A stretch of 64,000 nt of DNA from an uncultured Candidatus Binatia bacterium (GTDB lineage Bacteria; Desulfobacterota; Binatia; UBA9968; JAJDTQ01): the NCBI GenBank assembly GCA_965242525.1, contig OZ251459.1, positions 3,353,515-3,417,514 of the forward strand. Reading direction: 5' to 3'. Both the position numbers and the translations under genes were made by a program. The notes below the pieces were generated by a model. That model saw nothing but the letters and a program-made list of their open reading frames with translations. It ran no database searches and was not told the DNA's origin. Below are positions 5,458 through 45,939 of this stretch, piece after piece (positions within the stretch are counted from its first letter, which is position 1; each line of letters begins with the position of its first letter).

Positions 5458-5489
5458 CCGCTACGGGTGGGGTCCGATTTGGAAACGGC

Positions 5490-5783
5490 TCAATCGGAAA
5501 GTGCGCCGAAAAATTTCTCCTTGTTTGAGAACCTCGCTCGATCTTCTTCGGTAGGTGGGTTACTCTGGTAGGGTGGACAGTGGTAGTAGTAGGTCCGCAC
5601 GACGCTTGATCTCGCGGCTATTGCCGAAACGAAAGCCCCATAGTCGATTCGCTGTCTGTTGAAGTGGTCGTCGAGCAGCTTGTCGATGTATCCCCCATCA
5701 AGAAAGACAACCGATCTGTCCACGAGGTGCGTCTCCTGTCGGCACGAAAAGGAGAGGGGTCCCTTGCAGGACCCCTCTCTCAT
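5490..5783 (-). pseudogene. N-terminal fragment (about 95 aa) of a NYN/LabA-like domain protein, probably a gene remnant.
   Basis: VVFLDGGYIDKLL ... VRTYYYHCPPY resembles the first half of the NYN domain (the FIDG.NL and YYY segments). No plausible start codon or RBS; it sits in the nth-hsdR gap. Confidence 0.3.
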
Positions 5784-6052
5784 GAAAAGCCCGACATCCA
5801 GAGTGAACGCCGGGGGGTATAAACAGCGGCGTTTGCACGCCTGAAAGATAAGCTAAACCCACAGGCCGCTCGTGTCAAGACCCAAGGGGCGTCGTCCAGG
5901 ATCTTGAGGTCGCCGGTTCATAGAGGGCGCCCAGCCGTTCGTGGCGAGGTTGTCCGTCTTGGCGCGGTTCTCCGCCACCGTGTTGGATTCCGAGGACTTC
6001 CAAGCTATCCTGCTTTCTCAGTACCGACAGACTACCGCAGTGCTGACCCGCC

Positions 6053-8584: not shown

Positions 8585-8603
8585 ATCGTGAGGAGGAACC
8601 GCC

Positions 8604-10451
8604 TTGCTCGACTCCACCACCAAACACCGTATTGACACCGCCCGTGATATCCTCGTGGGCAAGGTGCCTGACCCCAAGAGTCAGGTGGAGCAGATCACCA
8701 TCGCGCTCATCTATAAGTTCATGGACGATATGGACGCCGAAAGCGAGGAGTTGGGAGGACGGCGCAGGTTTTTTGCCAACAGGTTCGCCCGCTACGGCTG
8801 GACGAAGTTGATGCGCTCCGGCCTGGGGGGGCACGAAACCCTGAACCTCTATGCCGAAGCCATCACCCGTATGCCCGAGAACCCCGGCATTCCACCCCTG
8901 TTCCGCAGCATCTTTAACAATGCCTACCTGCCCTACCGCGACCCGGAGACCTTGCGCGCCTTCCTAAAGGTCATCAACGAGTTCACCTATGACCACTCGG
9001 AGCGGCTGGGAGACGCTTTCGAGTACCTGCTGTCCGTCATGGGTTCCCAGGGCGACGCTGGCCAGTTCCGCACCCCGCGCCACATCATCGACTTCATCGT
9101 CGCCATCATCGACCCGAAAAAGGATGAGACTATGCTCGATCCGGCGTGCGGTACCGGAGGTTTCCTCATCTCCTCTTACAAACACATCCTGAAGACCAAC
9201 ACGGACGAGGACGGGAACAGCACTCTCACGCCCGAAGACCGCCGCCGACTCGCCGTCAACTTCAAGGGCTACGATATCTCTCCCGACATGGTGCGCCTCT
9301 CCCTCGTGAATATGTACCTCCACGGCTTCGCCGACCCGCACATCTTGGAGTACGACACCCTCACCAGCCAGGAACACTGGAACGAGTACGCCGACGTCAT
9401 ACTGGCCAACCCCCCTTTCATGTCACCCAAGGGCGGCATCCGCCCACACAACCGGTTTTCGGTCCAGTCCAAGCGTAGCGAAGTCCTGTTCGTGGACTAC
9501 ATGGCCGAGCACTTGAACCCTACTGGCCGAGCCGGAATCATCGTACCCGAAGGCATCATCTTCCAGAGTCAAGGCGCACACACGAAATTGCGCCGGATGC
9601 TGGTAGAGGATTTCCTCGTAGCGGTCATTTCATTGCCAGCCGGCGTGTTCCAGCCCTATTCCGGCGTGAAGACCTCGATCCTGATCCTGGACAAGGCGCT
9701 GGCCAAACGGACAAACCGCATCGCTTTCTTCGGGGTGGAGAACGACGGCTACGATCTAGGAGCACAGCGACGACCGATCGAGGAGAACGACTTGCCACGC
9801 GTAACGGCCGAGATCGTAGAGTATCTGGGCCACTCGCGAACCGATAAATTCCTGAACGCTGCCGAACCGATACGCGCCGGGCAAGTGGCGGAGCCTAGGG
9901 GTACGTATACGACGGTCGAACCGTCCAGAGGCTTTCAACCTAATAGCGGACTCATCGTCGAGAAGGAACAAATCGCCACTCTTGGAGGCTATGGCTTGAA
10001 TGCGGTGCGTTATCAGGAAGGCGACACCCGCAAGAAGAAATCAAAGTGGCCACTTGTGAAAGTTAAGGATGTGTGCCAAGCTATTTTGGGTGGTGGCACT
10101 CCTTCTACGAAAAACGAAGAGTACTGGCAAGGGAAGATTCCTTGGATCACAAGTGCCGACATCGTAAATCTCACGACTGCGAGACCACGTCGATATATCA
10201 CGGAGAAAGCAATAAAGGAATCGGCCACCAACTTGATCCCCAAAGACAATGTGGTAGTTGTAACAAGAGTTGGCCTCGGGAAACTATTCAGGAACAGTTT
10301 TGATATATGTATTAGTCAAGACTCACATGGGTTGATCGTGAAAGATGGAGTCAATGCGGATTATCTGGTACAGATACTGAAAGACAAGGTGAAGGAATTC
10401 AAGAAAAGCAGTCAAGGTTCGACCATACAGGGAGTTACAAAAAGAGACTAG
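8604..10451 (+). CDS. hsdM: Type I R-M HsdM (N6-adenine methyltransferase) fused to a single HsdS-like target-recognition domain. Reading frame is interrupted at 10449.
   Basis: TTG start after a GAGGAGG RBS. HsdM_N region, motif I DPACGTGGFL, motif IV NPPF. The C-terminal ~200 aa (KVKDVCQAILGGGTPSTKNEEYWQGKIPWITSADI...) resembles an HsdS TRD. Confidence 0.8.
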   Translation: MLDSTTKHRIDTARDILVGKVPDPKSQVEQITIALIYKFMDDMDAESEELGGRRRFFANRFARYGWTKLMRSGLGGHETLNLYAEAITRMPENPGIPPLFRSIFNNAYLPYRDPETLRAFLKVINEFTYDHSERLGDAFEYLLSVMGSQGDAGQFRTPRHIIDFIVAIIDPKKDETMLDPACGTGGFLISSYKHILKTNTDEDGNSTLTPEDRRRLAVNFKGYDISPDMVRLSLVNMYLHGFADPHILEYDTLTSQEHWNEYADVILANPPFMSPKGGIRPHNRFSVQSKRSEVLFVDYMAEHLNPTGRAGIIVPEGIIFQSQGAHTKLRRMLVEDFLVAVISLPAGVFQPYSGVKTSILILDKALAKRTNRIAFFGVENDGYDLGAQRRPIEENDLPRVTAEIVEYLGHSRTDKFLNAAEPIRAGQVAEPRGTYTTVEPSRGFQPNSGLIVEKEQIATLGGYGLNAVRYQEGDTRKKKSKWPLVKVKDVCQAILGGGTPSTKNEEYWQGKIPWITSADIVNLTTARPRRYITEKAIKESATNLIPKDNVVVVTRVGLGKLFRNSFDICISQDSHGLIVKDGVNADYLVQILKDKVKEFKKSSQGSTIQGVTKRD

Positions 10452-10607
10452 CCGAAATTGAGATACCTCTTCCTCCGCCGATCGTACAACGAGAAATCGT
10501 AGAAGAGATAGAGAGGTGCCAAAAAGTTATAGACGAGGCATTAGAATTGGTAACGCAGATGAACAGCAAAATAGAGACAACCCTAACGCGAGTGTGGGAA
10601 TCATAGT
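10439..10607 (+). pseudogene. Frameshifted conserved C-terminal segment of HsdS (LAEIEIPLPPPIVQREIVEEIERCQKVIDEALELVTQMNSKIETTLTRVWES). An A5 tract at 10439-10443 separates the two frames.
   Basis: Frame 2 downstream of the TAG at 10449 encodes the canonical HsdS 'IPLPPLxEQ' conserved region. One extra A in the A5 run would fuse it in frame, giving ...STIQGVTKKRLAEIEIPLPP... Confidence 0.6.
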
Positions 10608-10610
10608 TTT

Positions 10611-12278
10611 ATGAGAGAGAATCAAATGTATTGGGATATTCCGCAAATTGTCGGCGAGCCGCTGCATATACCTATCACTGGCGGCGACCGGATTTTCATC
10701 GTAGGTCCCAACGGTTCGGGAAAATCAGCGTTGATTCAGCACTTTGTCTCGTTACATGGGTCTCAGAATCAGCCTCAGGAAATCCAACGTATTGCAGCGC
10801 ATAGGCAGACATGGCTTACTTCGGGAAGCATTGATGTTACACCGAAGAAACGCAGACAGTTTGATGAAATCTTTAAGACATATGAAACCGATCCTGCCTC
10901 ACGATGGATGGATAGGAGTCCGCACGAGAGACAGTCAGCGGTGCTCTTTGATTTGGTTGCGCAAGAGAATGATCGAGCCCGTCGCATTACTCGTCAAGTT
11001 GACGATGGAAAGGAGTGTGAAGCGAAACGAATCGCTGCTAGAACAACATCTCCTTTCGCTCGACTCAACGATCTATTACAATGTGGAATGTTGACAATCA
11101 CACTTGAAGATTCGCTTGGGGAAGAGATACTGGCTCGGCATCGAGGTACGGAAACCTCCTTCAGCATGGCGCAGATGTCGGATGGGGAACGAAATGCTGC
11201 TATTATTGCCGCTAATGTATTGACTGTGAAACCTGATACTATATTGTTAATCGATGAACCGGAGCGGCATTTGCACAGGTCGATTATTGAGCCTTTTCTT
11301 TCTGCCGTGTTTGAACAACGACAAGACTGTGCGTTCATCATTTCGACACATGAGCTCGCCCTGCCGATTGCCAATCCAAGAGCACAAGTTCTTATGGTTC
11401 GATCATGTAGATGGGGGGCGGATACTGCAGAAGCGTGGGATGCGCAACTTCTCAAAGCAAGTCCGGAACTACCGGAAGATCTGAAACGCTTGATCCTGGG
11501 TGCTCGAAGGAGAATTTTGTTTGTCGAGGGCACCTCAGGCAGCTTAGACCTACCACTTTATACTACTCTATTCCCGAAGGTCTCCGTGGTGTCGCAGGGG
11601 AGTTGTACTGATCTCCTAAGGGCCGTAAAAGGCTTGCGAGAGACTACAAACCTGCATCACGTCGAGGCATTTGGTCTTATTGACCGGGATAACCGCGGAG
11701 AGGATGAGGTTAAACAATTGTTTGATAATGGAGTGTTTGCTCTCGAAGTGTACTCAGTGGAAGCGCTTTACTATTCTCTGGACGCTATTGAAGCGGTGGC
11801 TCGTTGGCAAGCGAATTCATTCAGGTGCAGCGCCGATGAGATGATCGCGTCTGTGAAAGAGGAAGCATTGCGTGTCTTGGAGGAAAGCGATTTGGCAGAA
11901 AGAATGGCAGCACGACGAAGTGCCGGTCGGATACATGCTGAATTATTGTCACAAATGCCTGATTGGAAATACATCAGAGACCATAGGGGTAGCAGATTCA
12001 AAGTTTCCGTGGAGTCTCCGTACTCAGAGGAACTGGAGCATTTTCGCAAACTTGTTGCCGAAAAGAGATTGGATGAACTCGTCGCACGCTATCCGTTACG
12101 CGAGAGTCGTCTATTCAATACCATTGCCAACGCTTTGAAGTGTCGTTACAGAAGTGACTACGAGCAGATGGTGCTTTCCCGGCTTAGAGACGCCGAGAAT
12201 CTGGCTCAGAAGCTGAAACAACGCGTCGGCCCTCTCGCGACGGAGCTTGAGCGGGCTACCTCCCGGGAAGCAGGCTGA
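10611..12278 (+). CDS. ABC-type ATPase fused to a DUF4435/TOPRIM-like domain: an OLD-family or fused AriA-AriB (PARIS)-like defence protein.
   Basis: Walker A GPNGSGKS, signature-like MSDGER, Walker B/H ILLIDEPERHLH. C-terminal half has TOPRIM-type acidic motifs ILFVEGTSGSLD and FGLIDRDNRGEDE. About 44% GC against a ~69% background, and begins four nucleotides after the hsdS end. Confidence 0.65.
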   Translation: MRENQMYWDIPQIVGEPLHIPITGGDRIFIVGPNGSGKSALIQHFVSLHGSQNQPQEIQRIAAHRQTWLTSGSIDVTPKKRRQFDEIFKTYETDPASRWMDRSPHERQSAVLFDLVAQENDRARRITRQVDDGKECEAKRIAARTTSPFARLNDLLQCGMLTITLEDSLGEEILARHRGTETSFSMAQMSDGERNAAIIAANVLTVKPDTILLIDEPERHLHRSIIEPFLSAVFEQRQDCAFIISTHELALPIANPRAQVLMVRSCRWGADTAEAWDAQLLKASPELPEDLKRLILGARRRILFVEGTSGSLDLPLYTTLFPKVSVVSQGSCTDLLRAVKGLRETTNLHHVEAFGLIDRDNRGEDEVKQLFDNGVFALEVYSVEALYYSLDAIEAVARWQANSFRCSADEMIASVKEEALRVLEESDLAERMAARRSAGRIHAELLSQMPDWKYIRDHRGSRFKVSVESPYSEELEHFRKLVAEKRLDELVARYPLRESRLFNTIANALKCRYRSDYEQMVLSRLRDAENLAQKLKQRVGPLATELERATSREAG

Positions 12279-12368
12279 ATCAATGGGCTCTTCCGGCTTT
12301 CGTGTGGGTAGGGATAGGGAGGAAAGGGGGGGTGAGACAGGGTAGAGGGAGCGGCAAGGGAGGGAGCA

Positions 12369-18599: not shown

Positions 18600-19230
18600 C
18601 CCCGACCCTCCCGTCCCCGGTTCGTCCTCGTCCCCGTTCGTCCCGAGCGTAGCGAAGCAAAGGAACCTCTGAAAAATGGCTCTTCCGGCTTTCGTGTGGG
18701 TAAGGTAGAAGGGAAAGGGAAGCGACATCTCCGCGGACACTCACCCCGTCATTCCCGCAAACGCCCCACCCTCCGTCATTCCCGCGAAAGCGGGAATCCA
18801 TCCACTTTCCTCGCTCTCGTTGTACAAACGGAACCCCTGAACAATCGGATAGAGGCAAGGCCCGTCCTTCGACTCCGCTACGCTACGCTCAGGACGAACG
18901 GAAATAGGGGCGTCAGGGTGAGGGAATCCATCCTGTATGTCTCGATTGTTCAGAGGCCCCAAACCCTCATACAGGGCGCCCACGGAGTTTGCTCGCAAGG
19001 TCTGGATTCCCGCTTTCGCGGGAATGACGTGAAGGGGCTTTCGCGGGAATGACGAGGCAGGGCTTTCACGGGGAGGATGAAATGGGGAGTGTCGCAACCC
19101 ACACGAATTCCGGAAGCGCCTGAAAAATCGAGACATGGAGCATGGGTTCCTTCACCCTGACCCCTATCTCCGTTCGTCCTGAGCGTAGCGAAGCGAAGTC
19201 GAAGGACGCGCTCATGCTCCCCCTGTCCCG
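18600..19230. repeat. A 630-bp intergenic mosaic of REP/MITE-like repeats: RepA x3, the palindromic RepB hairpin GGATTCCCGCTTTCGCGGGAATGAC with 23-bp tandem derivatives, and RepC GGCTCTTCCGGCTTTCGTGTGGGTA with its inverse CCCACACGAATTCCGGAAGCGCC.
   Basis: The same motifs recur at 12284-12310, 23940-23975, 35556-35582, 38460-38700 and 39305-39490. Track ORFs 18696..19052 and 18741..19136 are just translations of these repeats. Confidence 0.85.
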
Positions 19231-21227: not shown

Positions 21228-22766
21228 CTACTCCTTCCGTTGGCTCCGCGGGTCGTCCAGCGGCGTCCTGGGTCCGTCCAGGGCCAGCCGCCGGAAACGC
21301 GCCCGGTCCACCTTGAAGTCGTGGGCGTCGGTCTCCGGCCATTGGTAGAACGCGTCCGGGATCTTGTAGCGCGGCAGGGTCCGCCCGAGCCAGGCGGCCA
21401 GCGCCGCGGCGCCGGGACGCTCCCCCCGTGTCTGCACGAACGCCACGCACCGCTGGCCGAACTCCTCGTCGGGGATGGGCGCCACCACCGCCCGGTCCAC
21501 CCCGTCGTGGTCGGTCAGGGCGCGCTCGATCTCCTCGGGGTGGATGGTCTCGCCGCCGGAGAAGAAGCGGTTGTCGCGCCGGCCGATGACCGTCAGGTAG
21601 CCGTCCTCGTCCACGCGCCCGAGATCCCCGGTGGCGAACCAGCCGTCCGGGGTCAGGGGACGCATCAGGCTCCCGCCCTCCACGTAGCCCATGAACAGGG
21701 TCTCTCCGGCCAACTGGATCTCCCCCTCGCCGCCGATCCGGAGGCGGCGGTACGGCAGCAGCTTCCCGGAAGTGAGCCGCTGGGCGGTGGTGGAACCGGG
21801 TCCCGCGGTAGCCACCTGGGAGGCCATCTCGGTGCAGCCGTAGCTGGCGAACACCGGCAGACCGCGAGCGCCCGCCCGTTGCAGCAGTTTCCGCGGGACC
21901 GGGCTGCCCCCCAGGACGATGCAGCGGAGCGAAGGGTAGCGCACGGACTCGGGCCGCTGCAACAACCTGTGGAGCTGGGTGGCCACCACCGACAGGTGCG
22001 TGACCTCGTAACGGTTCAGGACCGCGTCCAAGGTCTCTCCCCGGTCCGGCATCACCACCGCGGCCCCCGCCAGCAGGCAGCGGAAGAGGATACCGAGCCC
22101 GCCCACGTGGTAGAGCGGCAGGTCCAGCAGCCAGCGGTCCCCGGCCGCCAGCGGCAGGTTCCGGTTGGATCCCAGGGCGTTGTAGTAGTGGTTGCCGTAG
22201 GAGTGGAGCACCGCCTTGGGCGCGCCGGTGCTGCCGGAGGTAAAGACGATGGTCGCGGCGCGGCCGAGGGGCATGGCGGAACCCTGGGTATCCTCGACCA
22301 AGGGATCCCTGTCCGCGGCGAATTTGCGGCCGGCATGGGATTCGGCAAGATCCATGTGCGTATCGGCGACCGGCGAGGCTCCGGCCGCGGCAAGGTCCCG
22401 GCCCCGGATCAGGGTCGCGCGGTCTCCGAGCCCCTGCTCGTCCGGGACCTGGGCCACCAGCTTCCGGCAGTCGATGCGCCGCAGCAGGTCGGCCACCGGG
22501 CGGTTGGGCAGGCGGGTGTTCATGGGACAGCACACCGCGCCCAGCCGGAGCAGCGCCAACAGCCAGACGAGGTAGTCCGGGCTGTTGGGCGCCAGTACGG
22601 CCACGCGCTCGCCGGGGGCGCAACCGGCCCGTCGCAGGGCAGCGGCCGCGGCGGCGACGCGGCCGCGGAGTTCGGCGAAGGAGAGGACGCGGTCGCCGCG
22701 CACCACCGCGGGGCGGTCGCCGGAATGCTCGGCCGCTTCTTCGAGGGGGCAGCGGACCTCAGTCAT
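21228..22766 (-). CDS. menE: o-Succinylbenzoate--CoA ligase (adenylate-forming enzyme).
   Basis: AMP-binding motif TSGSTGAPKAV and GEL(x)xGxxxxxGY. Located directly downstream of menC. Confidence 0.75.
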   Translation of the reverse strand: MTEVRCPLEEAAEHSGDRPAVVRGDRVLSFAELRGRVAAAAAALRRAGCAPGERVAVLAPNSPDYLVWLLALLRLGAVCCPMNTRLPNRPVADLLRRIDCRKLVAQVPDEQGLGDRATLIRGRDLAAAGASPVADTHMDLAESHAGRKFAADRDPLVEDTQGSAMPLGRAATIVFTSGSTGAPKAVLHSYGNHYYNALGSNRNLPLAAGDRWLLDLPLYHVGGLGILFRCLLAGAAVVMPDRGETLDAVLNRYEVTHLSVVATQLHRLLQRPESVRYPSLRCIVLGGSPVPRKLLQRAGARGLPVFASYGCTEMASQVATAGPGSTTAQRLTSGKLLPYRRLRIGGEGEIQLAGETLFMGYVEGGSLMRPLTPDGWFATGDLGRVDEDGYLTVIGRRDNRFFSGGETIHPEEIERALTDHDGVDRAVVAPIPDEEFGQRCVAFVQTRGERPGAAALAAWLGRTLPRYKIPDAFYQWPETDAHDFKVDRARFRRLALDGPRTPLDDPRSQRKE

Positions 22767-23850
22767 GCCGCGCCTCGCGCAACAGCGCGCAGTCGATGCG
22801 GTGGTCCCGGGCCAGGTCGTCGTTCCAGGACAGGGCGTCCGGTCGGAACCGGATGCGCGGCCGGACCACGTCGGCGTCGAGCCAGCGGTAGGTGTCGAGG
22901 CCCGCGGGGACTGCCGCGCCGGTGGAGTCCCAGGCGAACCCTGCCACCGCCAGCGTCCCGACGCCGCTCTCGAAACAGCCGCTCGCCACCGGGCGCACGC
23001 CCAGGGCCAGCGCCTTGGCGGCCCATTCCCGGGCCCTTGCCGCGCCGCCCAGGAGCGTGGGCTTCAACACCACCGCGCCCACCTCCTGGCGTCCTTCCAG
23101 GTCGTCGGGTCCGAGCTCCAACAGGCTCTCGTCCAGCCCCACCGGGATGCCGGTGGCGTCGAAGAACTCTCCCAGGCGCGCCGGGTCGCGCAGGGGCTCC
23201 TCCAGGTACTCGACGCCCGCGTCGCCCGCCGCCTTGCCGAAGGCCACCGCCTGCTCCAGGCTCCAGCTCCGGTTGGCGTCCAGCCGGAGGCTCACGCCTT
23301 GCCCCACCGCGGCCCGCACCGCCCGCGTCAACTCCGCGTCTTCCGCCGCCCCTCGACTCCCCACCTTGAGCTTGACCGCGCGGCAACCCGCGTCCCCGAG
23401 TCGCGCGGCCTGCCGCAGCACTTCCTCCCGGGACCCCATCAGCAGACCGTTGACCGGGACTGCGCCGTCGAAGCCCGGCAACTCCCCGTCAGTCCCCGTG
23501 CGCATGCGCCGCGACAGGCTCGCCAGCGCGGTCTCCAGGCCGAAACGCACCGACGGCGAGGCCGCCTCGGGCGGCTCGCGGCCCAGCCACGATTCGAGGT
23601 CGCCGCCGCCGGGCTCGAACCCCGCGCCTCCCAGACGCCGGGCAAGGGCGGTGAACTCGGCCGCGGCGTCGTCCACGCTCTCGCGGCTGAACCCGGGCAG
23701 CGGCGCCGCGTCGCCCCAACCCCACGCCCCGGAATCCGCCTGCACCCGCACCAGCAGGCCCGTGCGCTCGCGCACCGCCCCGCCCGCCAGCGGCAGCGGC
23801 CGCGCCAGCGGCAGGCGGTAGCGAAAGATCCGGCAGCCCTCGATCCTCAT
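22759..23850 (-). CDS. menC: o-Succinylbenzoate synthase (enolase superfamily).
   Basis: Enolase-superfamily barrel with KLKVG...LRLDAN.SW...EEP; lies in the men gene context. Confidence 0.75.
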   Translation of the reverse strand: MRIEGCRIFRYRLPLARPLPLAGGAVRERTGLLVRVQADSGAWGWGDAAPLPGFSRESVDDAAAEFTALARRLGGAGFEPGGGDLESWLGREPPEAASPSVRFGLETALASLSRRMRTGTDGELPGFDGAVPVNGLLMGSREEVLRQAARLGDAGCRAVKLKVGSRGAAEDAELTRAVRAAVGQGVSLRLDANRSWSLEQAVAFGKAAGDAGVEYLEEPLRDPARLGEFFDATGIPVGLDESLLELGPDDLEGRQEVGAVVLKPTLLGGAARAREWAAKALALGVRPVASGCFESGVGTLAVAGFAWDSTGAAVPAGLDTYRWLDADVVRPRIRFRPDALSWNDDLARDHRIDCALLREARHD

Positions 23851-24042
23851 GATGCTAAGGTTAGCCAGGCTAGGAGCCTGTCCGAGTAAGGAATCCTGGA
23901 TTCCAGGTCAAGCCTAGAATGACCGGACGGAACTTCTCCCGTCATTCCCGCGAAAGCGGGAATCCAGAGGAAGCGAGCCCCACTTCCCCGTGGCGGGTCG
24001 CTTCCCTTTCATCGTGTTCCATTTTATTTCTCCTTCCCCCTT

Positions 24043-24069
24043 TTCATTGGCTACTTCGCCAAGTATAAT
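24043..24069 (+). promoter_or_regulatory. Candidate sigma70-type promoter (TTCATT-N15-TATAAT) for the low-GC cassette.
   Basis: Perfect TATAAT at 24064-24069, 77 nt upstream of the XRE gene ATG; the -35 is weak. Confidence 0.3.
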
Positions 24070-24145
24070 CTGTCTCAAGGGTAAAGCATGCCCTAACCGA
24101 TGTCAATACCCGACAGTTTATTTTTGTCGAACTCGACATTAAAGG

Positions 24146-24496
24146 ATGCTTGCTCTGTCTGAAATCTTTCAACAACGTTTAAGGGCTGCTAGGGGTACAC
24201 GCGAATGGAGCCAAAGCGATTTGGCTAAACGCGCGGGTTTGCCGCCTAGCTCGATTGCCCATTTTGAAACCGGACCGCGCAAGCCGTCTTTCGAAACCCT
24301 GCGTCGCTTGGCTAATGCCCTAGAAGTTACGACCGATTATCTTCTAGGGAGAGTCGAAGATCCAGGTCTTGCCGAATCAGGAGATCCGCTCTTCCGTGAT
24401 ATTGGCAACCTGACCGGCAGTGATCGCGACCTAGCGAGAGACTTCCTCAAAATGTTGACGGAACGCAGTTCGGCTAAGCAAGGGAGGATCAAATGA
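24146..24496 (+). CDS. XRE-family helix-turn-helix transcriptional regulator.
   Basis: HTH_XRE signature WSQSDLAKRAGLPPSSIAHFETG; AAAGGA RBS; about 50% GC. Confidence 0.8.
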   Translation: MLALSEIFQQRLRAARGTREWSQSDLAKRAGLPPSSIAHFETGPRKPSFETLRRLANALEVTTDYLLGRVEDPGLAESGDPLFRDIGNLTGSDRDLARDFLKMLTERSSAKQGRIK

Positions 24497-24708
24497 ATGT
24501 GCCCTTGGTTTAGAGTTAGCCAAAAGGATGGGGGGAGCTATCCAGGGTTTTGAAATTCAACCTTGCCCGTCACCTCTCTTGAAATGGCAGGACTCCACGA
24601 TATCGTCTGGAGCCGAAACTCGGCATCGCCACAGGGGTGTCAGGAATGCTGTCTGTACTGGGAAGTCATTTGCTGAGCAGATCGTTACCGCTATAACGGA
24701 GTCATCAA

Positions 24709-25578
24709 ATGGCTACGGGAAAAAGCTCGACTGTCTATCGCGCCCTTAGCTTGGGTGCGGGAGCGCAGAGTTCTGTTTTAGCACTCCTGCTATCTCGATC
24801 CGACCCCCATTTAGCTAAGCTTGGGTATCACAAGCCCAATGCCGCCATCTTCGCTGATACCGGATGGGAACCTGAGTATGTGTATCGTCATTTGGACTGG
24901 CTTGAGGGACAGCTTCGGTATCCGCTGATCCGAGTGTCCGAAGGCAATCTGAGGACTAACCTTAAACAGGCCCGCACTGTGTCAGGTCATCGTTTTGTTG
25001 ATGTCCCCTTATTCATAGTCGATGGGGACGGCAGGAAAGGGATGTTACGCCGACAGTGCACCACTCACTACAAAATCAGGCCGATTTATCGACAGATCCG
25101 AAAGCTTGCCGGAGGACAGCCTAGTCGACCGTTCCCCAAGGACACCCATGCTGAAATATGGCTCGGGATTTCGCTGGACGAGGTCGGCCGCATGAAGCCG
25201 AGCAAGGAACCGTGGGTAGAACATCGATGGCCGCTGGTGGACATCGGCATGACACGTCAAGATTGTATCGAATGGTTTCAGTCTGAGTATCCAGACCGCC
25301 ATCTACCTCGGTCGGCCTGCGTCATTTGCCCGTATCGTTCAGACAAACATTGGTTGGAATTGAAACGACATGAACCTACTAGCTACAAAGAGGCTGTGCA
25401 ATTCGACCGCTGGCTCCGAAGAAGCACCGAGACACCTCTACGCAAACTGCTGAACGGTCGCCCATATCTGCATTCGGCTCGGCGACCCCTCGCCAGCGTC
25501 ATGAAGGAACGGAAGACGGAAGACGTGGGCGATATAAATAACTTCAACAATGAATGCGAGGGTCTCTGTGGTGTCTGA
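24709..25578 (+). CDS. PAPS reductase / PP-loop ATP-pyrophosphatase-like protein (DndC/CysH-like fold). First gene of the 4-gene cassette.
   Basis: N-terminal degenerate PP-loop YRALSLGAGAQSSVLALL. C-terminal Cys-rich segments CTTHYKIRP and CVICPYRSDKHW. GGAG RBS. Confidence 0.5.
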   Translation: MATGKSSTVYRALSLGAGAQSSVLALLLSRSDPHLAKLGYHKPNAAIFADTGWEPEYVYRHLDWLEGQLRYPLIRVSEGNLRTNLKQARTVSGHRFVDVPLFIVDGDGRKGMLRRQCTTHYKIRPIYRQIRKLAGGQPSRPFPKDTHAEIWLGISLDEVGRMKPSKEPWVEHRWPLVDIGMTRQDCIEWFQSEYPDRHLPRSACVICPYRSDKHWLELKRHEPTSYKEAVQFDRWLRRSTETPLRKLLNGRPYLHSARRPLASVMKERKTEDVGDINNFNNECEGLCGV

Positions 25579-26818
25579 AACAGAGGCTGAAACAATCAGG
25601 CCAAGATATTCCTTATATCCCTACCAGCGTCAGGTGCTGGCCGACGTTCTTCGTGCCCTATCGTTTTCCGAACGTCGTGTGCTTGCTCATCTTCCTACTG
25701 GCGCCGGGAAAACCAGAATCGCAGCCCATGCTGCTTGCCATATGCTCAACGATCACGACACAGACAAGTCTCTTGTAATTTGGTTAGCGGCCACAGAGGA
25801 ACTCTGTGAGCAAGCAGCAGAGCAGCTTTCAAGGGCATGGATTTATCTGGGACGACGAGATGCCTGCATCCATCGACATTGGGGAACAAAGTCGGCGGAA
25901 CTACGGGACCTCCATTCGGGGTTTTTGGTGACAGGTCTTGCTAAACTTCGCTCCGCCGCTTTTTCAGATAACACTCTCCTTGCGCATCTTGCACACCGCG
26001 CTGCTGCGGTCATTTTTGACGAAGCCCATCAGGCAATTGCAGCAACCTACTCCTTTATTACAGAGCAACTATGCAGTGTAAAGCCACCTCTTCTTGGTCT
26101 TACAGCCACGCCGGGACGAACCGCGAATCTCACTGACGCAGATTATCTCCTTGCTAACATGTTCAATAATAACAAGGTTTCCATAGACCCAAGGGGACAC
26201 GGCAACCCTGTTACCTATTTGATCCAGAATCGCTACCTAGCCGATCCGCGATTTGTGTCTGTCAGATTCGATTCCGCCGCGTCGATTATTGACCCTTTAC
26301 CCGGTACAGACTACCGTACAGAAGACCTTGACGATTTGGGCCGCAGCCGCGAGCGCACGCGCAAGATTGTAGATCTCGCCGTGGCCGCAGCGGAGCATCA
26401 CCCTCGTACAATCATGTTTTGCCCTTCCGTTGAGAGTGTTTTGGAATGCAACAAACTCCTTCAAGCCAGGTCGGTCAAGACGGCTGTAGTCACGGCTCAC
26501 ACACCAAAGGAAGAACGTCGTGAAATCATCGAGACGTTCAGAAGTAACGACAGAGAGCACATGCTAATACTTAATTATGGCGTGCTCACTGCAGGTTTCG
26601 ATGCCCCTCGTACCCGCTGCGTCATCATCGCACGCCCGACCACTTCGCTGGTACTTTACTCGCAAATGGTCGGTCGAGCTATGCGTGGCCCGATGGCCGG
26701 GGGAAATTCCAAGGCCGAAATCTTTACGGTTACTGACACCAACCTTCCAGGGTTTGGTTCTGTGGTTGACGCCTTTACAAATTGGGAGGATCTATGGACG
26801 ACCAACTCGCCGAATTAG
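25550..26818 (+). CDS. SF2 DEAD/DEAH-box helicase.
   Basis: Motifs I HLPTGAGKT, II FDEAHQ, III LTATP and VI QMVGRAMRG. Overlaps the preceding gene by 29 nt. Confidence 0.8.
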   Translation: MNARVSVVSETEAETIRPRYSLYPYQRQVLADVLRALSFSERRVLAHLPTGAGKTRIAAHAACHMLNDHDTDKSLVIWLAATEELCEQAAEQLSRAWIYLGRRDACIHRHWGTKSAELRDLHSGFLVTGLAKLRSAAFSDNTLLAHLAHRAAAVIFDEAHQAIAATYSFITEQLCSVKPPLLGLTATPGRTANLTDADYLLANMFNNNKVSIDPRGHGNPVTYLIQNRYLADPRFVSVRFDSAASIIDPLPGTDYRTEDLDDLGRSRERTRKIVDLAVAAAEHHPRTIMFCPSVESVLECNKLLQARSVKTAVVTAHTPKEERREIIETFRSNDREHMLILNYGVLTAGFDAPRTRCVIIARPTTSLVLYSQMVGRAMRGPMAGGNSKAEIFTVTDTNLPGFGSVVDAFTNWEDLWTTNSPN

Positions 26819-28665
26819 AAAACGCAGACCGCAGCCTTTTTCCGAGCGACTATACAGTACAGGCTCTTCGAGACAGTCGGTATCACAATACCGCCTATGC
26901 CATTGCTGAACTCATTGATAACTCGATAGAGGCAAATGCTGCAAGAATCGATTTTCTTTGCATGGAAGAACTACAAAGCGTAGGCCCTCAGACACGGAGA
27001 CGAATCTCAGGAGTTGCCATACTGGACGACGGTGAGGGAATGGAAGTAAGGACACTCCTTGAGGCTCTTAGATTTGGGGGAGGAACACGACACAACTCGG
27101 ATAGAGGAATCGGCAAATATGGCATGGGTCTCCCCACATCCTCGATGTCTCAATGCAAGAGAGTTGACGTATGGACTTGGCAGGAAGGGGTGGACTCAAC
27201 TTGGCATTCCTATATCGATGCGGACGATATTGCTAACGGGAACCACAAGGTGCCTGTTCCTGATCGACAACAAATACCCGAGACATGGCGAATAGCCGGA
27301 AGCGATGAAATCTATGGACATCGCACCGGTACTCTTGTCGTGTGGAGCAAGCTAGACAAGGTTCAGTGGAAAACTAGCCGTGCGATCATCGACAATACCT
27401 CCCGCGAGGTAGGTCGTATTCATAGGCACTGGATTCATGCGGAAATGACCAAAATACGAGTCGTTTCTTTCCCTGCTAACCGGCCTACAGAGCCAGATAC
27501 GGGTCCCTCCTATATTGTAGCAAACGATCCTCTTTACTTGCTGAAGCCCACTTCTACTCCTCACCCTTGGGATGATAAAGAGATGTTTGTAGAGTGGTGT
27601 CCCCCAAGAGAATACCCGTGTCAAGTTGAGGGTCGAGAACACAGGATTTGGGTAAAATATTCTATCGTGAAACCAGAGGCATTGAGGACGGAGAGAGTTA
27701 CACAAAACCCAGGCAACGAAGCCCACGGGAAACACGCTAGACACAACATCGGGGTATCTGTTGTACGAGAAGATAGGGAAATTGTTCTTGAAGATGCTTT
27801 TCTCAGAGAGGGCGGCAGTACAGACCTTCCTCAGAATCGCTGGTGGGGTTGCGAAGTACTATTCTCTCGAGGTTGCGATGAGTTGTTTGGTGTAGATCAT
27901 AATAAGCAAATGGTGGCAAATTTTACGCAGGCAGCGAAAACTCTTACCCGTGACGATCGTGACCCTCATGTGATCCTAGAGGAGATGGGGATTGATGAAG
28001 AGGACATCATTCACAGGATAGTGGGAGACATCCGAAACCAAACGCGGGCCATGATGGATGCCATTCGGCAGATGTTTGAGCAGCGTCGAAAGTCGGTTGA
28101 CGATGGTGGGCGTACCAGTAGGCATAGGAACCCAGAAGATAAAGCTATAAGGATCGCTACTGACGCGGATCGGGACGCTATAGCAGCCGGTGAAGAGCAG
28201 CCGACTAAGACTGATATAGATCGTGAGCAAATTCCGCCTCAAGAACGACAGGAGCGCCTCGTAGAACAGTTCATTGAAGCCGGACAACCCGGCCAAGACG
28301 CGGAGAAGCGCGCGAAGCTGCTGATACAGGAAGATTTGTCCTACCAGTTCAGCTCGGAACAGGGAGACGGATTTCAGATTTTCAAGGTACGTTCTTATCA
28401 AGGAATTTTGCACATCAAGCTCAACACGGAGCATCCAATCTATGACCTTCTCAAACATATTGAAAATGATCTTCCGGAGAATGGAGATGAGGCGGATCCC
28501 AGGTTTCAGGCCAGTGTTGCGATCAGATTATTGCTATCTTCCTGGGCTCGGATGGAAGACCAGACAGAGGCACAGCAGGAACGAGCACGTATTCAAGATA
28601 CTGCCATGAACTGGGGGCGTCAAGTAGACAAGGCTATCCGCCAACTGCGTGACAGAAGCCGATGA
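26794..28665 (+). CDS. GHKL (Bergerat-fold, MORC/HATPase_c_3-like) ATPase.
   Basis: Bergerat motifs ELIDNSIEANA (N box), ILDDGEGM (G1) and GKYGMGLP (G2). The long C-terminal region is charged and helical. ATG at 26794 follows GGGAGG; TTG at 26782 is an alternative start. Confidence 0.75.
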   Translation: MDDQLAELENADRSLFPSDYTVQALRDSRYHNTAYAIAELIDNSIEANAARIDFLCMEELQSVGPQTRRRISGVAILDDGEGMEVRTLLEALRFGGGTRHNSDRGIGKYGMGLPTSSMSQCKRVDVWTWQEGVDSTWHSYIDADDIANGNHKVPVPDRQQIPETWRIAGSDEIYGHRTGTLVVWSKLDKVQWKTSRAIIDNTSREVGRIHRHWIHAEMTKIRVVSFPANRPTEPDTGPSYIVANDPLYLLKPTSTPHPWDDKEMFVEWCPPREYPCQVEGREHRIWVKYSIVKPEALRTERVTQNPGNEAHGKHARHNIGVSVVREDREIVLEDAFLREGGSTDLPQNRWWGCEVLFSRGCDELFGVDHNKQMVANFTQAAKTLTRDDRDPHVILEEMGIDEEDIIHRIVGDIRNQTRAMMDAIRQMFEQRRKSVDDGGRTSRHRNPEDKAIRIATDADRDAIAAGEEQPTKTDIDREQIPPQERQERLVEQFIEAGQPGQDAEKRAKLLIQEDLSYQFSSEQGDGFQIFKVRSYQGILHIKLNTEHPIYDLLKHIENDLPENGDEADPRFQASVAIRLLLSSWARMEDQTEAQQERARIQDTAMNWGRQVDKAIRQLRDRSR

Positions 28666-29519
28666 CTATGTACGGTTGGCCGGGAGACTTGTTGGCCGGC
28701 GTTTGTTCACGTGCCCAATATTTGATTATCGCAGCGCCATACATCAAGTCCGACGCTCTTGTCAGGGTTCTAGCTGACGTTAATCCAGGAGCCTCTCTTG
28801 TCTGCATCACGAGATGGAATCCGCATGACCTCGTTACAGGTGCATCCGATGTGGAATGTCGTACCATTGTCATTAAGCGAGAAGGTTTCTTTAGACTTCA
28901 TCCGTCACTCCATGCGAAATACTATCGAGCAGACAATGTGGTTTTAATTGGATCCGCTAATTTGACATCTTCCGCATTAGGCTGGACACGTCAACCTAAC
29001 CTGGAGATTCTTTGTCGTCCGGAAGATGATTTCGACGCTGACGCCTTTCAACAGTCTCTGTTCGATGGATCGAGAGAAATTGATGATGAAGAGTTCAAAT
29101 CTTGGAAATCCATTGCAGATATGACACTTCAAGGTAGGAGAAGAGTGGTTGACGAACCTCCTAGACTTGATACCTGGAGACCGGCGACTCGCGACCCCAG
29201 ACACTTGGAGTTCGCGTATCAGGGGAAAGACGATGAAATTGCTTCGTTCGACGAGCAACGAGCGGCACAGCGTGACATGCGGACTCTTCGGATTCCTCCA
29301 GGTTTGACCAGCGCGCAGGTTCGAACCTGGATCTCAGGTTGTCTTTTTGCCGCTTCCTTCACCAACACCATACTCCGGCTGCATAATATGGAAAACTTAG
29401 ATGTATCTCGTTCACTTGCAGACATCTACAAACTCAGCGTCACTGATGCACGAAGGGATATGGAAACCGTCCAAAATTGGCTTTCATTCCTTGCTCCACA
29501 GACTTTGACTCGAACTTAA
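28662..29519 (+). CDS. Phospholipase D-family (single HKD) nuclease, Nuc/BfiI-like.
   Basis: HKD motif HAKYYRADNVVLIGSANLT. The ATGA overlaps the GHKL gene's stop. Confidence 0.75.
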   Translation: MTMYGWPGDLLAGVCSRAQYLIIAAPYIKSDALVRVLADVNPGASLVCITRWNPHDLVTGASDVECRTIVIKREGFFRLHPSLHAKYYRADNVVLIGSANLTSSALGWTRQPNLEILCRPEDDFDADAFQQSLFDGSREIDDEEFKSWKSIADMTLQGRRRVVDEPPRLDTWRPATRDPRHLEFAYQGKDDEIASFDEQRAAQRDMRTLRIPPGLTSAQVRTWISGCLFAASFTNTILRLHNMENLDVSRSLADIYKLSVTDARRDMETVQNWLSFLAPQTLTRT

Positions 29520-29596
29520 AATCGATCCTCTTCCGATTCTCCTCGTGCACGGTCCGCATGTCCACTCCTATCGAAGGGGCTCATACCAAGAGATCC

Positions 29597-30493
29597 TCAC
29601 AGGACCCAACCGACGGAGAAGAGCGCGCTGTACAACAGGAGCAGCTTGGCCGTGTAAGCGAGTAACGGGTTCAACGAAGGCCCCTCGGAGACGAAGATCC
29701 TGCGGAAGGCCGGCAGCGCCGCGACCAGGACCGCGGCCGCGGCCGCGGACCAGGGACGACGGCCCGAAGCGAGGTAGAGGGCGAGGGGCAGCAGGCAGGC
29801 GGCCACCACCGCGGCCACGTATTCGGCGCGGACGAAGCCGCGTCCGAAACGCACGGCCAGGGTCCGCTTGCCGGTGCGCCGGTCCTCGTCCGCGTCCCGG
29901 AGGTTGTTGACCGCGAGGATGGCCACGGACAGCAGGCCCGGCGCCAGCCCGGCCGCCGCCACCGTGGCGTTGACGCTCAGGGTCTGCACGTAATAGGTCC
30001 CGGCCACCGCCACCGGTCCGAAGAACACCAGCACGAAGAGGTCGCCGAGCCCCAGGTAGCCCAGCGGCCGCGGTCCGCCGGTGTAGAGCAGCCCCGCGGC
30101 CACGGAGGACAGGCCGATGAGGGCCGCGGGCCATCCGCCGCGCCACACGAGGTAGAGGCCGCCCAGCAGGGTGAGGGCCAGCACCGCGGCGATGCCGCGC
30201 TTCATGGTCCCGGGGGCCAAGAGCCCGGCCTGGGTGACCCGCAACGGCCCCTGGCGGGACTCGGTGTCCGCGCCCTTCTCGAAGTCGAAGAGGTCGTTGG
30301 CGAAGTTGGTGGCCACCTGGATCAGCACCGCGCAGGCCAGCGCCGCCAGCGCCGAAGGCGCGTGGAACCCGCCGTCGTCCACGGCCATGGCGGCGCCCAC
30401 CACCACCGGGGCCACCGAAGCCCAGAGGGTCTTGGGTCTCGCCGCCAGGAACCAGACCGCGGCGGGGCCCGGCGGCTGGGCGCGGGTGCTCAA
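29597..30493 (-). CDS. menA: 1,4-dihydroxy-2-naphthoate polyprenyltransferase (UbiA family).
   Basis: UbiA-type motif NDLFDFEKGAD; nine predicted TM segments; lies in the men context. Confidence 0.8.
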   Translation of the reverse strand: MSTRAQPPGPAAVWFLAARPKTLWASVAPVVVGAAMAVDDGGFHAPSALAALACAVLIQVATNFANDLFDFEKGADTESRQGPLRVTQAGLLAPGTMKRGIAAVLALTLLGGLYLVWRGGWPAALIGLSSVAAGLLYTGGPRPLGYLGLGDLFVLVFFGPVAVAGTYYVQTLSVNATVAAAGLAPGLLSVAILAVNNLRDADEDRRTGKRTLAVRFGRGFVRAEYVAAVVAACLLPLALYLASGRRPWSAAAAAVLVAALPAFRRIFVSEGPSLNPLLAYTAKLLLLYSALFSVGWVL

Positions 30494-38459: not shown

Positions 38460-38700
38460 GCTTAACCGAAAACACGGGACGAGAAAACAGGCTCTTCCGG
38501 CTTTCGTGCGGGCAAGTTTCGTGTGGGCAAGGCAGGAGGGAAAGGGCCATGGGGTTTGCTCGCAAGGTCTGGATTCCCGCTTTCGCAGGAATGACGAGCG
38601 GGTGGGCTTTCGCGGGTATGACGAGGCGGGCTTTCGCAGGTATGACGGGATAGGGAGTGTCGCAACCCACACGAATTCCGGAAGCGCCCCGAAAGATACC
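38460..38700. repeat. Repeat cluster: RepC, then the 45-bp block shared with 18976, then three tandem ~23-bp RepB-derived units, then inverse RepC.
   Basis: AGTTTGCTCGCAAGGTCTGGATTCCCGCTTTCGC is identical to 18976-19010. Tandem units GGGCTTTCGCGGGTATGACGAGG. Confidence 0.8.
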
Positions 38701-39310: not shown

Positions 39311-39490
39311 GGAGTTATCCGGCAAAATAGATTCCCGCTTTCGCGGGAATGACGGGGGCAGGCGTCTGCGGCATGACGGGGCGAGCGTCCGCGGGAATGC
39401 CGGCCTGAGTGTCCTCGGGAATGACGGCGTGACCCCTGTCGCCCCCCTTCTCCTGCCTTACCCACACGAAAGCCCGAAGGCCCAGCCCAG
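39305..39490. repeat. Degenerate tandem array of RepB-type units (GGAATGACGG, GCATGACGGGG, GGGAATGCCGG, GGGAATGACGG) followed by inverse RepC.
   Basis: Successive ~22-25 bp units each ending in ...GGGAATGACG(G); CCCACACGAAAGCCCGAAGGCC at 39461. Confidence 0.7.

Positions 39491-45863: not shown

Positions 45864-45939
<76 letters not shown>

Follow-up and report, generated by a model that had tools for sequence, protein, structure and literature searches.

The locus examined here raises the question of what function is served by five genes of foreign base composition that lie between menA and menC of an uncultured Candidatus Binatia bacterium (contig OZ251459.1 of assembly GCA_965242525.1, positions 3,353,515 to 3,417,514; this whole 64-kb stretch is hereafter called the window). 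They encode an XRE-type repressor followed by a four-gene cassette, consisting of a PP-loop ATP-pyrophosphatase of the 3'-phosphoadenosine-5'-phosphosulfate (PAPS) reductase superfamily, a superfamily 2 (SF2) helicase, a MORC/MutL-like GHKL ATPase and a phospholipase D (PLD)-family nuclease (Table 1). The cassette is probably a self-contained mobile modification-and-restriction defence operon, a reduced form of the sulfur (phosphorothioate, PT) branch of such systems. It was compared with loci and contigs from other genomes, metagenomes and plasmids, which are labelled L0xx.

The evidence that carries this reading begins with the helicase, GHKL and PLD genes, hereafter called the trio. Annotated plasmids searched by tblastn with the GHKL protein yielded full-length relatives with about 35 % identity, and over the trios as a whole the full-length identity between plasmid and window proteins was 42 % for the helicase, 35 % for the GHKL ATPase and 28-30 % for the PLD nuclease. 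On plasmid A of Trichormus (Anabaena) variabilis ATCC 29413, genes for a DUF4007 protein (SspB), a 1,168-amino-acid protein (SspC, a DUF499-type ATPase) and a PAPS reductase (SspD) are followed by two small open reading frames (ORFs), a 'DndB' protein, a DEAD/DEAH helicase, an 'ATP-binding protein' (the GHKL ATPase), a PLD protein and a cysteine desulfurase (SspA). Comparable arrangements are found on plasmids of Pannonibacter phragmitetus BB and Roseobacter litoralis B14 and also in Hymenobacter GOD-10R, with no cysteine desulfurase within the stretch viewed in the latter. In Geminocystis NIES-3709 the trio occurs with a PAPS reductase, at which the viewed stretch begins, sspB and sspC being outside it. 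An extra DndB/DGQHR protein, which may tune the modification, is present with three of the five plasmid Ssp-linked trios.

The same association was found in three loci from metagenome-assembled genomes in which the phage-type PP-loop gene is missing or barely detectable (L058, L059 and L066). These have SspABCD genes beside the trio and were the only loci with tblastn matches to SspA, SspB or SspC (Anabaena queries); the three proteins were found neither in the 64-kb window nor in the flanks of loci of the PP-loop type. In L058, PADLOC identified SspA (5e-130), SspB (1e-102), SspC (E=0) and SspD (7e-109), with the trio immediately after them in one overlapping operon. The trio of the window is, by these comparisons, orthologous to those attached to SspABCD, and because such trios stand behind complete SspABCD operons, the modification-plus-restriction logic proposed for the locus in the earlier, sequence-only reading is now much better founded. 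A rough neighbour-joining tree of the GHKL proteins, constructed without support values, interleaves Ssp-linked and PP-loop-linked trios, suggesting that the marking modules (SspABCD versus the PP-loop enzyme) have been swapped more than once. Unknown partners of Ssp are to be expected, since 84 % of sspBCD clusters are without a known restriction partner (PMC8092258). The trio was also considered as SspFGH, and this was rejected, SspF having a Walker A motif and SspH being FtsK-like. On plasmid pAtCFBP7129b of Agrobacterium tumefaciens (L077), a helicase-GHKL pair lies beside a RHE_PE00001 family protein, three hypothetical proteins and an FtsK/SpoIIIE-domain protein, with no Ssp or PP-loop genes at that locus, which may represent a further architecture of the family.

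The Pfam and phrog matches agree with the domain set of the sequence-only reading, and the ORF coordinates match its gene overlaps of 29 nt (PP-loop/helicase), 25 nt (helicase/GHKL, counted from the ATG at 26794) and 4 nt (GHKL/PLD). The helicase has Pfam E-values of 1e-16 to 1e-20 for ResIII, DEAD and Helicase_C, keeps the motifs GAGKT, DEAH, TATPGR and QxxGRxxR, and has RadD (1.6e-18) and XPB/Rad25 as its nearest PDB sequences. The sequence relatives of the GHKL protein in PDB are MORC2 and MORC3 only; an alternative start of its gene, a TTG at 26782, would give 627 instead of 623 amino acids. The PLDc_2 match of the nuclease (24.5 bits) is under the curated Pfam cut-off, and the assignment was kept because the HKD motif HAKYYRADNVVLIGSAN, of the form HxK(x)4D(x)6GSxN, is intact and is conserved in 58 aligned sequences (57 loci and the window). 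This PLD family has 697 representatives at E<=1e-10, and complete members among the 150 listed are mostly 270-330 amino acids long. The catalytic motifs of all four proteins are conserved across the aligned loci, and the ratio of nonsynonymous to synonymous substitution rates (dN/dS) against close relatives is 0.10-0.21 for the four genes (helicase 0.13, PLD 0.21) and 0.12 for the XRE gene. The four cassette genes and the repressor gene are thus under purifying selection. No matches were obtained in a PDB sequence search with the PP-loop profile or the PLD protein. The AlphaFold models were moderate, with a predicted local distance difference test score (pLDDT) of 67 for the PP-loop enzyme and 62 for the GHKL ATPase, and their fold matches were used at the level of fold class only.

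The first gene of the cassette occupies, directly before the helicase gene, the slot held by SspD in L058. Its product scores 19.3 bits with Pfam PAPS_reduct, for which the cut-off is 22.5; it was assigned to the PP-loop enzymes because of its match to the phage 'PAPS reductase' family phrog_424, which is its closest family (7.5e-40, profile), and because of its PP-loop fold. Full-length alignments of the window enzyme show 35-40 % identity with proteins of Pelagibacter phage HTVC034P, Geobacillus phage PK5.1 and Thermus phage P23-77, and it has the C-terminal ECEGxCGV in common with phrog_424. Five cysteines are invariant in an alignment of the window enzyme with the phage homologues and two true SspD proteins: C117, within R-x-C-T-x-x-x-K-I-x-P, C204 and C207, within S-x-C-x-x-C, and the C-terminal pair C283 and C287. 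This is the pattern of DndC-type enzymes, in which a three-cysteine [4Fe-4S] site is accompanied by a cysteine dyad proposed to receive sulfur (PMC10853773). The window enzyme retains the sulfur-handling residues of SspD, and the model resembles, at the level of fold class, Fe-S-dependent thiolases and adenosine-5'-phosphosulfate (APS)/PAPS reductases. Two narrower assignments were rejected. As SspD the protein scores only 51.8 bits in PADLOC (2.2e-14, profile positions 4-227 of 277), against 361.8 bits for the true SspD of L058, and it is a sister clade of SspD and not a member of it. As a sulfonucleotide reductase (CysH) it is sub-threshold in Pfam, and its context is an operon of helicase, ATPase and nuclease genes.

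The phrog_424 genes are solitary in the two phage genomes examined, with no restriction partner, unlike the gene in the window. In Geobacillus phage PK5.1 the homologue stands alone among genes for DnaD, a replicative helicase, an HNH endonuclease and a single-stranded DNA-binding protein (SSB), and in Pelagibacter phage HTVC034P genes for a nuclease and a strand-annealing protein are a few positions away from it. Because these are lone genes amid replication or recombination genes, a DNA-directed role without partners is plausible for the PP-loop family, and in our view the annotation as an auxiliary metabolic gene (AMG) of sulfate assimilation is probably wrong for this phage clade. It may tentatively be proposed, although this remains doubtful, that the PP-loop enzyme is a self-sufficient DNA sulfur-modifying enzyme, being either a one-protein phosphorothioate synthase that works with a housekeeping cysteine desulfurase or the writer of a new mark. 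In the latter case the mark could be, for example, a thiolated base, by analogy with the adenylate-then-sulfurate chemistry of TtuA/NcsA-type tRNA thiolases.

When the cassette was compared with the system profiles of PADLOC 2.0 and NCBIfam, no named system matched it at full length, in agreement with the sequence-only reading; the matches obtained were partial or weak (SspD at 52 bits, PbeA, MzaB and DrmC). No description of the cassette or of the module of Ssp, helicase, GHKL and PLD proteins was found in the literature; GHKL proteins come up in the Vibrio cholerae WASA paper as part of a variant of Shedu, and these mentions were set aside as irrelevant. Closest to the cassette is Ssp itself, with which it shares the superfamily of the first gene, the same five cysteines and the logic of a sulfur mark combined with a multi-protein restriction module. 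The trio, however, is neither SspE nor SspFGH, from which it differs in domain content, and none of SspE, SspF, SspG and SspH had a PADLOC match at E<0.01 in the cassette. In the Dnd systems, DndC is likewise a PAPS-reductase-like PP-loop Fe-S enzyme, but DndB and a CxC-type ABC ATPase are missing from the cassette, DndC, DndD, DndE, DndF, DndG and DndH had no PADLOC match, and the NCBIfam profile dnd_restrict_1 gave 37 bits against a cut-off of 600. PbeABCD has an HKD nuclease fused to an SF2 helicase (PbeA), along with a CxC ABC ATPase and a DndE-like protein, and the window helicase matches the helicase half (4e-20, profile positions 242-426 of 672); PbeB, PbeC and PbeD were not found in the cassette, and Pbe has no GHKL ATPase, unlike the cassette. 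BREX type 4 resembles the cassette in that BrxP, which has a PAPS reductase domain, stands in place of a methyltransferase as the marking enzyme, although BrxP is much larger than the window enzyme, usually fused to DUF4007 and accompanied by BrxC/PglY, PglZ and BrxL. BrxP, BrxC, PglZ and BrxL had no matches, and the helicase matched BrxHI/BrxHII only weakly (1.3e-5); RadD is also among its profile matches. DISARM is defined by the DUF1998 helicase pair DrmA and DrmB, the PLD protein DrmC and a methylase, of which only DrmC was matched, weakly, by the PLD protein (26 bits in PADLOC; 20 bits in NCBIfam, cut-off 133). MzaB matches the N-terminus of the GHKL protein only (residues 26-197, 63.8 bits, cut-off 850).

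Operons resembling restriction-modification systems, in which MORC or paraMORC ATPases are combined with SF2 helicases and nucleases, have been predicted (Iyer, Abhiman, Aravind 2008, PMC2292703), and the sequence-only reading had related the cassette to this prediction. The GHKL, helicase and HKD parts are borne out: the type-1 operons of that study have a MORC-type GHKL ATPase with S5/transducer domain, a Rad25/XPB-like SF2 helicase and an HKD nuclease in common with the window. The linked DNA methylase is not, since Pfam detected no methylase domain in the cassette, which has the PP-loop enzyme in the methylase role; its nuclease is separate, whereas in the predicted operons HKD is fused to the helicase. 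PAPS reductases are not mentioned in that paper (PMC2292703). Another paper of the Aravind laboratory, on Dnd neighbourhoods, describes HKD-SF2 fusions next to Dnd, and neither paper covers the present module or the combination of PAPS reductase and MORC. The cassette is a variant within the world of phosphorothioate and MORC-helicase-HKD systems and not wholly outside it.

In a modification-and-restriction operon of this kind, the PP-loop enzyme would mark the host's own DNA, the likeliest route being activation of a DNA position with ATP and subsequent transfer of sulfur from a housekeeping cysteine desulfurase, the enzyme having a putative three-cysteine Fe-S site and a C-terminal cysteine pair. 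The XPB/RadD-like translocase, the MORC/MutL-like clamp and the HKD nuclease would act together as an ATP-driven complex, scanning DNA and cutting or nicking molecules that lack the mark; the nuclease would have to dimerise, because it has a single HKD motif. The genes of the operon are translationally coupled, that of the predicted marking enzyme being first, and a CapH-type repressor gene precedes them. From the comparisons above we infer a DNA substrate for the PP-loop enzyme, activity independent of partners of the SspB/SspC type, a mark that contains sulfur and an attack of the trio on unmarked DNA.

Several points weigh against this mechanism. All of the evidence is computational and includes no experiment. 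The P-loop of the PP-loop enzyme is SLGAGxQS and not SGGKDS, its identity to SspD is 24-25 %, and confidence is low for the C-terminal third of its model, in which four of the five cysteines lie. That unmarked rather than marked DNA would be cut is assumed by analogy with SspFGH and DndFGH. To our knowledge, no phosphorothioation pathway characterised so far works without an ATPase and a partner that nicks or binds DNA (DndD/E, SspB/C, BrxC). Such partners were found neither in the cassette, nor in the 10-kb flanks of the other loci, nor in the 64-kb window, the rest of the host genome being outside the search. No PT dinucleotides are reported from isolates lacking the minimal dndCD, sspBCD or brxPC sets (PMC12914056). 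It is a matter of speculation that the trio might itself supply ATPase and nicking activity during marking, as type I and type III enzymes do.

The direction of discrimination is fixed by nothing that was computed, and the logic might thus be reversed, with the trio being activated by a mark on host DNA, as SspE is, or attacking modified DNA of invaders in the manner of a type IV nuclease; in that case the PP-loop enzyme would provide an activating signal and not a protective mark. A PT-stimulated effector, SspE, already exists among the Ssp systems (PMC8092258), and the DndB/DGQHR protein accompanying three of the five plasmid Ssp-linked trios also speaks for such an arrangement. On the other hand, a cassette that crosses phyla is most easily established if its first gene shields the new host from the next three, a translationally coupled operon headed by the gene for the marking enzyme agrees with the logic of classical restriction-modification, and a type IV enzyme needs no linked modifying enzyme. 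Reversed logic is unlikely on the whole. The substrate of the PP-loop enzyme might instead be a protein or a small molecule, which would be adenylated or thiolated, in a way comparable to the modification of a CD-NTase by the QueC-like Cap9, priming or regulating the trio as an abortive-infection nuclease. This is improbable, as the whole set of cysteines and the motif order are those of SspD and APS reductase and not of QueC, the enzyme replaces a DNA-modifying operon beside orthologous trios, and its homologues lie amid replication or recombination genes in the two phage genomes examined.

The cassette is widespread. A survey of one genome per species returned 64 loci, and in about 50 of these the PP-loop, helicase, GHKL and PLD genes have the same order and spacing with overlapping ends, in at least nine phyla, so that the neighbourhood comparison proposed in the sequence-only reading did reveal co-occurrence. 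The hosts in the survey are all metagenome-assembled genomes (MAGs), assigned to Latescibacterota; Dehalococcoidia, SAR202, Caldilineaceae and Anaerolineales; Gemmatimonadota; Acidobacteriota; Binatia; Entotheonella; Alphaproteobacteria; Rhodothermaceae; and Spirochaetia. The guanine-plus-cytosine (GC) content of the cassette is 0.49-0.64, and near 50-56 % overall, irrespective of the host GC of 0.42-0.75. More than 1,000 homologues of the GHKL protein exist; identity is 66-89 % among the best 120, none of which has a functional name. All four genes are retained in a second clade with GHKL proteins 40-45 % identical to that of the window. The sponge-associated symbionts listed in PMC7883664 include bin series such as SB06xx and PNGco; the cassette hosts of traceable origin are MAGs of sponge symbionts, and we infer that the whole host set is a typical consortium of high-microbial-abundance sponges. 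Contig OZ241986.1 (Latescibacterota) carries two diverged four-gene cassettes at different loci (L011 and L015), which could be two specificities. In some Latescibacterota loci the cassette is followed by an extra gene for a 287-amino-acid protein, which is confined to that lineage and was treated as host flank.

Viral contigs of IMG/VR contained no relative of the GHKL protein, and hence no evidence for a phage vehicle, no integrase or transposase was found inside any cassette copy, and neither conserved terminal inverted repeats nor shared upstream sequence was detected across the loci. In at least 11 independent loci (L006, L007, L008, L009, L012, L015, L016, L019, L027, L034 and L041) the cassette is bracketed by host-like direct repeats of 30-128 bp that are 89-100 % identical, with no accompanying recombinase gene. 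We know of no transposase family that matches target duplications of such variable length (8 bp in the window, 30-128 bp elsewhere), which suggests mobilisation in trans or repair-mediated insertion.

CapH/CapP pairs are typical of CBASS and other defence operons, and CapP provides de-repression triggered by DNA damage. In the window and its close relatives, CapH is followed by a decayed 212-bp remnant of a capP-like metalloprotease gene, which keeps the capP 5' end (ATGAATGTG.CCCTTGG, with an early stop) and the 3' end. Nowhere is the insert less conserved than in this remnant, which is only 73 % identical to the relative L068. A 73-codon ORF inside it (24528-24749) was rejected as a gene, since it evolves neutrally (dN/dS 0.8-2.2). 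The same cassette in L017, a Binatia MAG, has capH and also an intact gene for a 287-amino-acid HExxH protein (L017 positions 7001-7864; PADLOC capP 2.9e-66). The window repressor is thus orphaned, its CapP partner having decayed in this lineage, and de-repression triggered by DNA damage cannot work in cis here, because only a remnant of capP is left. Among the loci of the genome survey only L017 carries the XRE/capH gene, which is also present in the window relatives L003 and L069; most other loci have neither capH nor capP, and in some of them a consensus TTGACC-17-TATAAT promoter and a hairpin terminator take their place. The sequence-only reading had pointed to a TATAAT promoter candidate and an XRE regulator, and both were recovered, the former as the best-scoring site of the region (Table 1) and the latter as CapH type. 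The number of promoter-like sites overall is not above chance, and the block 24040-24115 is nearly invariant between the window and L068.

A role outside immunity was considered as well, either as a selfish addiction cassette, in which a toxic nuclease complex is held in check by an antidote enzyme, or as a chance passenger that serves DNA repair or sulfur metabolism. The wide spread without mobility genes would fit this, as would the decayed copies (fragments in L062-L065, an interrupted copy in L040) and the name PAPS reductase, that of a sulfate-assimilation enzyme, under which phage annotations list the PP-loop family. Addiction and defence are, however, compatible in restriction-modification systems. 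The CapH/CapP pair of L017 is intact, and anti-phage activity has been demonstrated for the SspE and SspFGH forms of the Ssp systems to which the trio is linked. A metabolic PAPS reductase would not share translational coupling with helicase, MORC-like ATPase and nuclease genes at about 50 loci. A non-immune role is therefore highly improbable.

The block itself was described in the sequence-only reading as an insert of about 50 % GC on the strand opposite to the men genes, which it splits, and the GC profile, the ORFs and the layout of L068 confirm this. GC content drops from 0.72-0.76 to 0.48-0.56 over approximately 23,890-29,560, and is 0.508 in the cassette (24709-29519) compared with 0.710 and 0.719 in the flanks and about 72 % in the genome. 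The insert genes are on the strand opposite to the flanking menC and menA; the identities of menB and menE are backed by Pfam, and the arrangement menF-D-H-B-A / menC-E is visible in the collinear relative L068. In two relatives with 87 % MenC identity (L070 and L072), menA and menC are adjacent without the insert, overlapping by GTGA (...GTCTTGTGAGGATCGAAGG...), so the proposed comparison with related strains did find an empty site. Alignments of the window to these empty sites share exactly 8 bp at both junctions, and this 8-mer, GATCCTCA, occurs only three times in the window and as a single copy at the empty site. Read on the men strand it is TGAGGATC, i.e. the overlap of menA stop and menC start. 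The start codon of menC is ATG in the window and GTG at the empty site, the A being the final base of the insert. Of two earlier observations, that no integrase and no flanking direct repeat were visible, the first still holds for the insides of the cassette copies and the second was overturned by the 8-bp repeat at both ends.

At the same junction, a more distant relative with 73 % MenC identity (L074) has two unrelated opposite-strand genes, for NYN and DUF2332 proteins (L074 positions 6618-7944), suggesting that the menA/menC boundary, an overlap of translationally coupled genes, is a recurrent landing site or hot spot. The foreign GC, the empty site, the 8-bp duplication, the different genes at the same junction in a relative and the unrelated contexts in at least nine phyla establish that the block was acquired horizontally, as the sequence-only reading had held. 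The junctions are matched by three metagenome contigs from different samples, with the menA side spanned by L068 and L069 and the menC side by L003 and L068. L068 and the window are collinear for 16 kb, with an identity of 91.9 % (flanks 93-95 %, cassette genes 87-92 %). Because related contigs carry the same insert with matching junctions, the insertion predates the split of these lineages. It is ancestral within relatives about 92 % identical in DNA, and of the possibility raised earlier, that the cassette might be ancestral with native GC content, only the first half applies, since the foreign GC has been retained. Although L068 shares the insertion, its synonymous divergence (dS) from the window is higher in the cassette (0.21-0.59, with the maximum in the GHKL gene) than in the men genes of the flanks (0.11-0.13); constraints on codons and GC may differ, or other copies of the cassette may have acted as donors in gene conversion. 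The MAG-type sequence and the abrupt GC jump might suggest an assembly chimera, which is hardly credible given the identical junctions in L068, L069 and L003 from other samples, the divergence of the cassette, resembling that of the flanks, and the precise empty site with its 8-bp duplication.

The insertion cut menC-menE off from the menF-A promoter, with 5.7 kb of opposite-strand genes now between them, and a consensus promoter scan gave no evident answer as to how menC-menE are currently transcribed. The left 150-190 bp of the insert consist of host-type palindromes resembling repetitive extragenic palindromes (REP), in which the 27-mer unit GTCATTCCCGCGAAAGCGGGAATCCAG is followed by a second hairpin, GGAAGCGAGCCCC..GGGTCGCTTCC; homology with the other-phylum cassette of L017 starts only at 24040. 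The window contains five copies of the 27-mer, none being expected by chance. These copies (18775-18801, 19002-19028, 23941-23967, 38569-38595 and 39327-39353) are in low-GC intergenic patches with degenerate CTTTCGCGGGAATGACG repeats.

Table 1 Features of the menA/menC insert, its flanks and a second low-GC island (positions in the window)
Feature	Position	Strand	Length	Evidence or remarks
menC (o-succinylbenzoate synthase)	22759-23850	-		MenC of relatives with MenC_N and MR_MLE_C
Left target-site duplication	23842-23849		8 bp	GATCCTCA; junction alignment to empty sites L070 and L072
Insert proper	23850-29591	+	5,742 bp	About 50 % GC; same insert in L068, L069 and L003
Host-type REP-like palindromes, left insert end	23890-24020			Unit GTCATTCCCGCGAAAGCGGGAATCCAG at 23941-23967
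Promoter candidate	24041-24069	+		TTTTCA-17-TATAAT, upstream of XRE; regional best, 10/12
CapH-like XRE repressor	24146-24496	+	116 aa	HTH_3 6e-16; PADLOC capH 6e-27, full length
Decayed capP-like metalloprotease remnant	24497-24708	+	212 bp	Between XRE and PP-loop genes
PP-loop ATP-pyrophosphatase, PAPS reductase superfamily, phage-type clade	24709-25578	+	289 aa	
SF2 DEAH helicase/translocase, XPB/RadD type	25550-26818	+	422 aa	ResIII, DEAD, Helicase_C
MORC/MutL-like GHKL ATPase, transducer domain, long helical C-terminus	26794-28665	+	623 aa	HATPase_c_3 6e-21
Single-HKD PLD-family nuclease, family-specific C-terminal domain	28662-29519	+	285 aa	PLDc_2 2.6e-5
Right target-site duplication	29592-29599		8 bp	GATCCTCA; overlaps menA stop codon
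menA (UbiA-family prenyltransferase)	29597-30493	-		UbiA 8e-34
Second low-GC island	5000-12300			GC 0.46-0.63
HsdR-like ResIII helicase (second island)	6053-8584			
N6-adenine methylase fused to specificity domain (second island)	8604-10451			
Fused AAA_21 and DUF4435 protein (second island)	10611-12278			Resembles OLD or PARIS-type ATPase-Toprim effectors

Elsewhere in the window there is a second low-GC island, with genes for an HsdR-like helicase, a methylase fused to a specificity domain and an AAA_21-DUF4435 protein. Because its genes are of defence type, the window holds at least two acquired defence blocks. ARAGORN predictions of a tRNA-Ala (30308-30382, inside menA) and a tRNA-Asn (ATT; 46752-46833) were rejected, as they have no support from Rfam, which backs only the tRNA-Thr at 45864.

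The findings bear on the Ssp family as well as on the organisms that share the cassette. The SF2 helicase, MORC-like GHKL ATPase and HKD nuclease make up an unnamed three-protein restriction module that is a recurrent partner of SspABCD, and its carriers include cultured and tractable strains, Anabaena (Trichormus) variabilis ATCC 29413 (plasmid A, AVA_RS27535-27545), Pannonibacter phragmitetus BB (P874_RS24890-24900) and Roseobacter litoralis B14 (ROLI_RS23025-23035). Prokaryotic MORC-like ATPases gain in it a concrete, conserved context for studies of mechanism. About 50 near-identical operons (60-80 % protein identity) in at least nine phyla of apparent sponge symbionts amount to a sharing of an immune cassette across a community. 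A single PP-loop enzyme in place of the four-protein Ssp machinery makes testable the question of what the minimal machinery for DNA sulfur modification is, and also whether the 'PAPS reductase' genes that are common in phage genomes and viromes serve DNA modification. If the enzyme does modify DNA by itself, its stand-alone phage homologues would be self-protection or anti-restriction enzymes and not auxiliary metabolic genes of sulfate assimilation.

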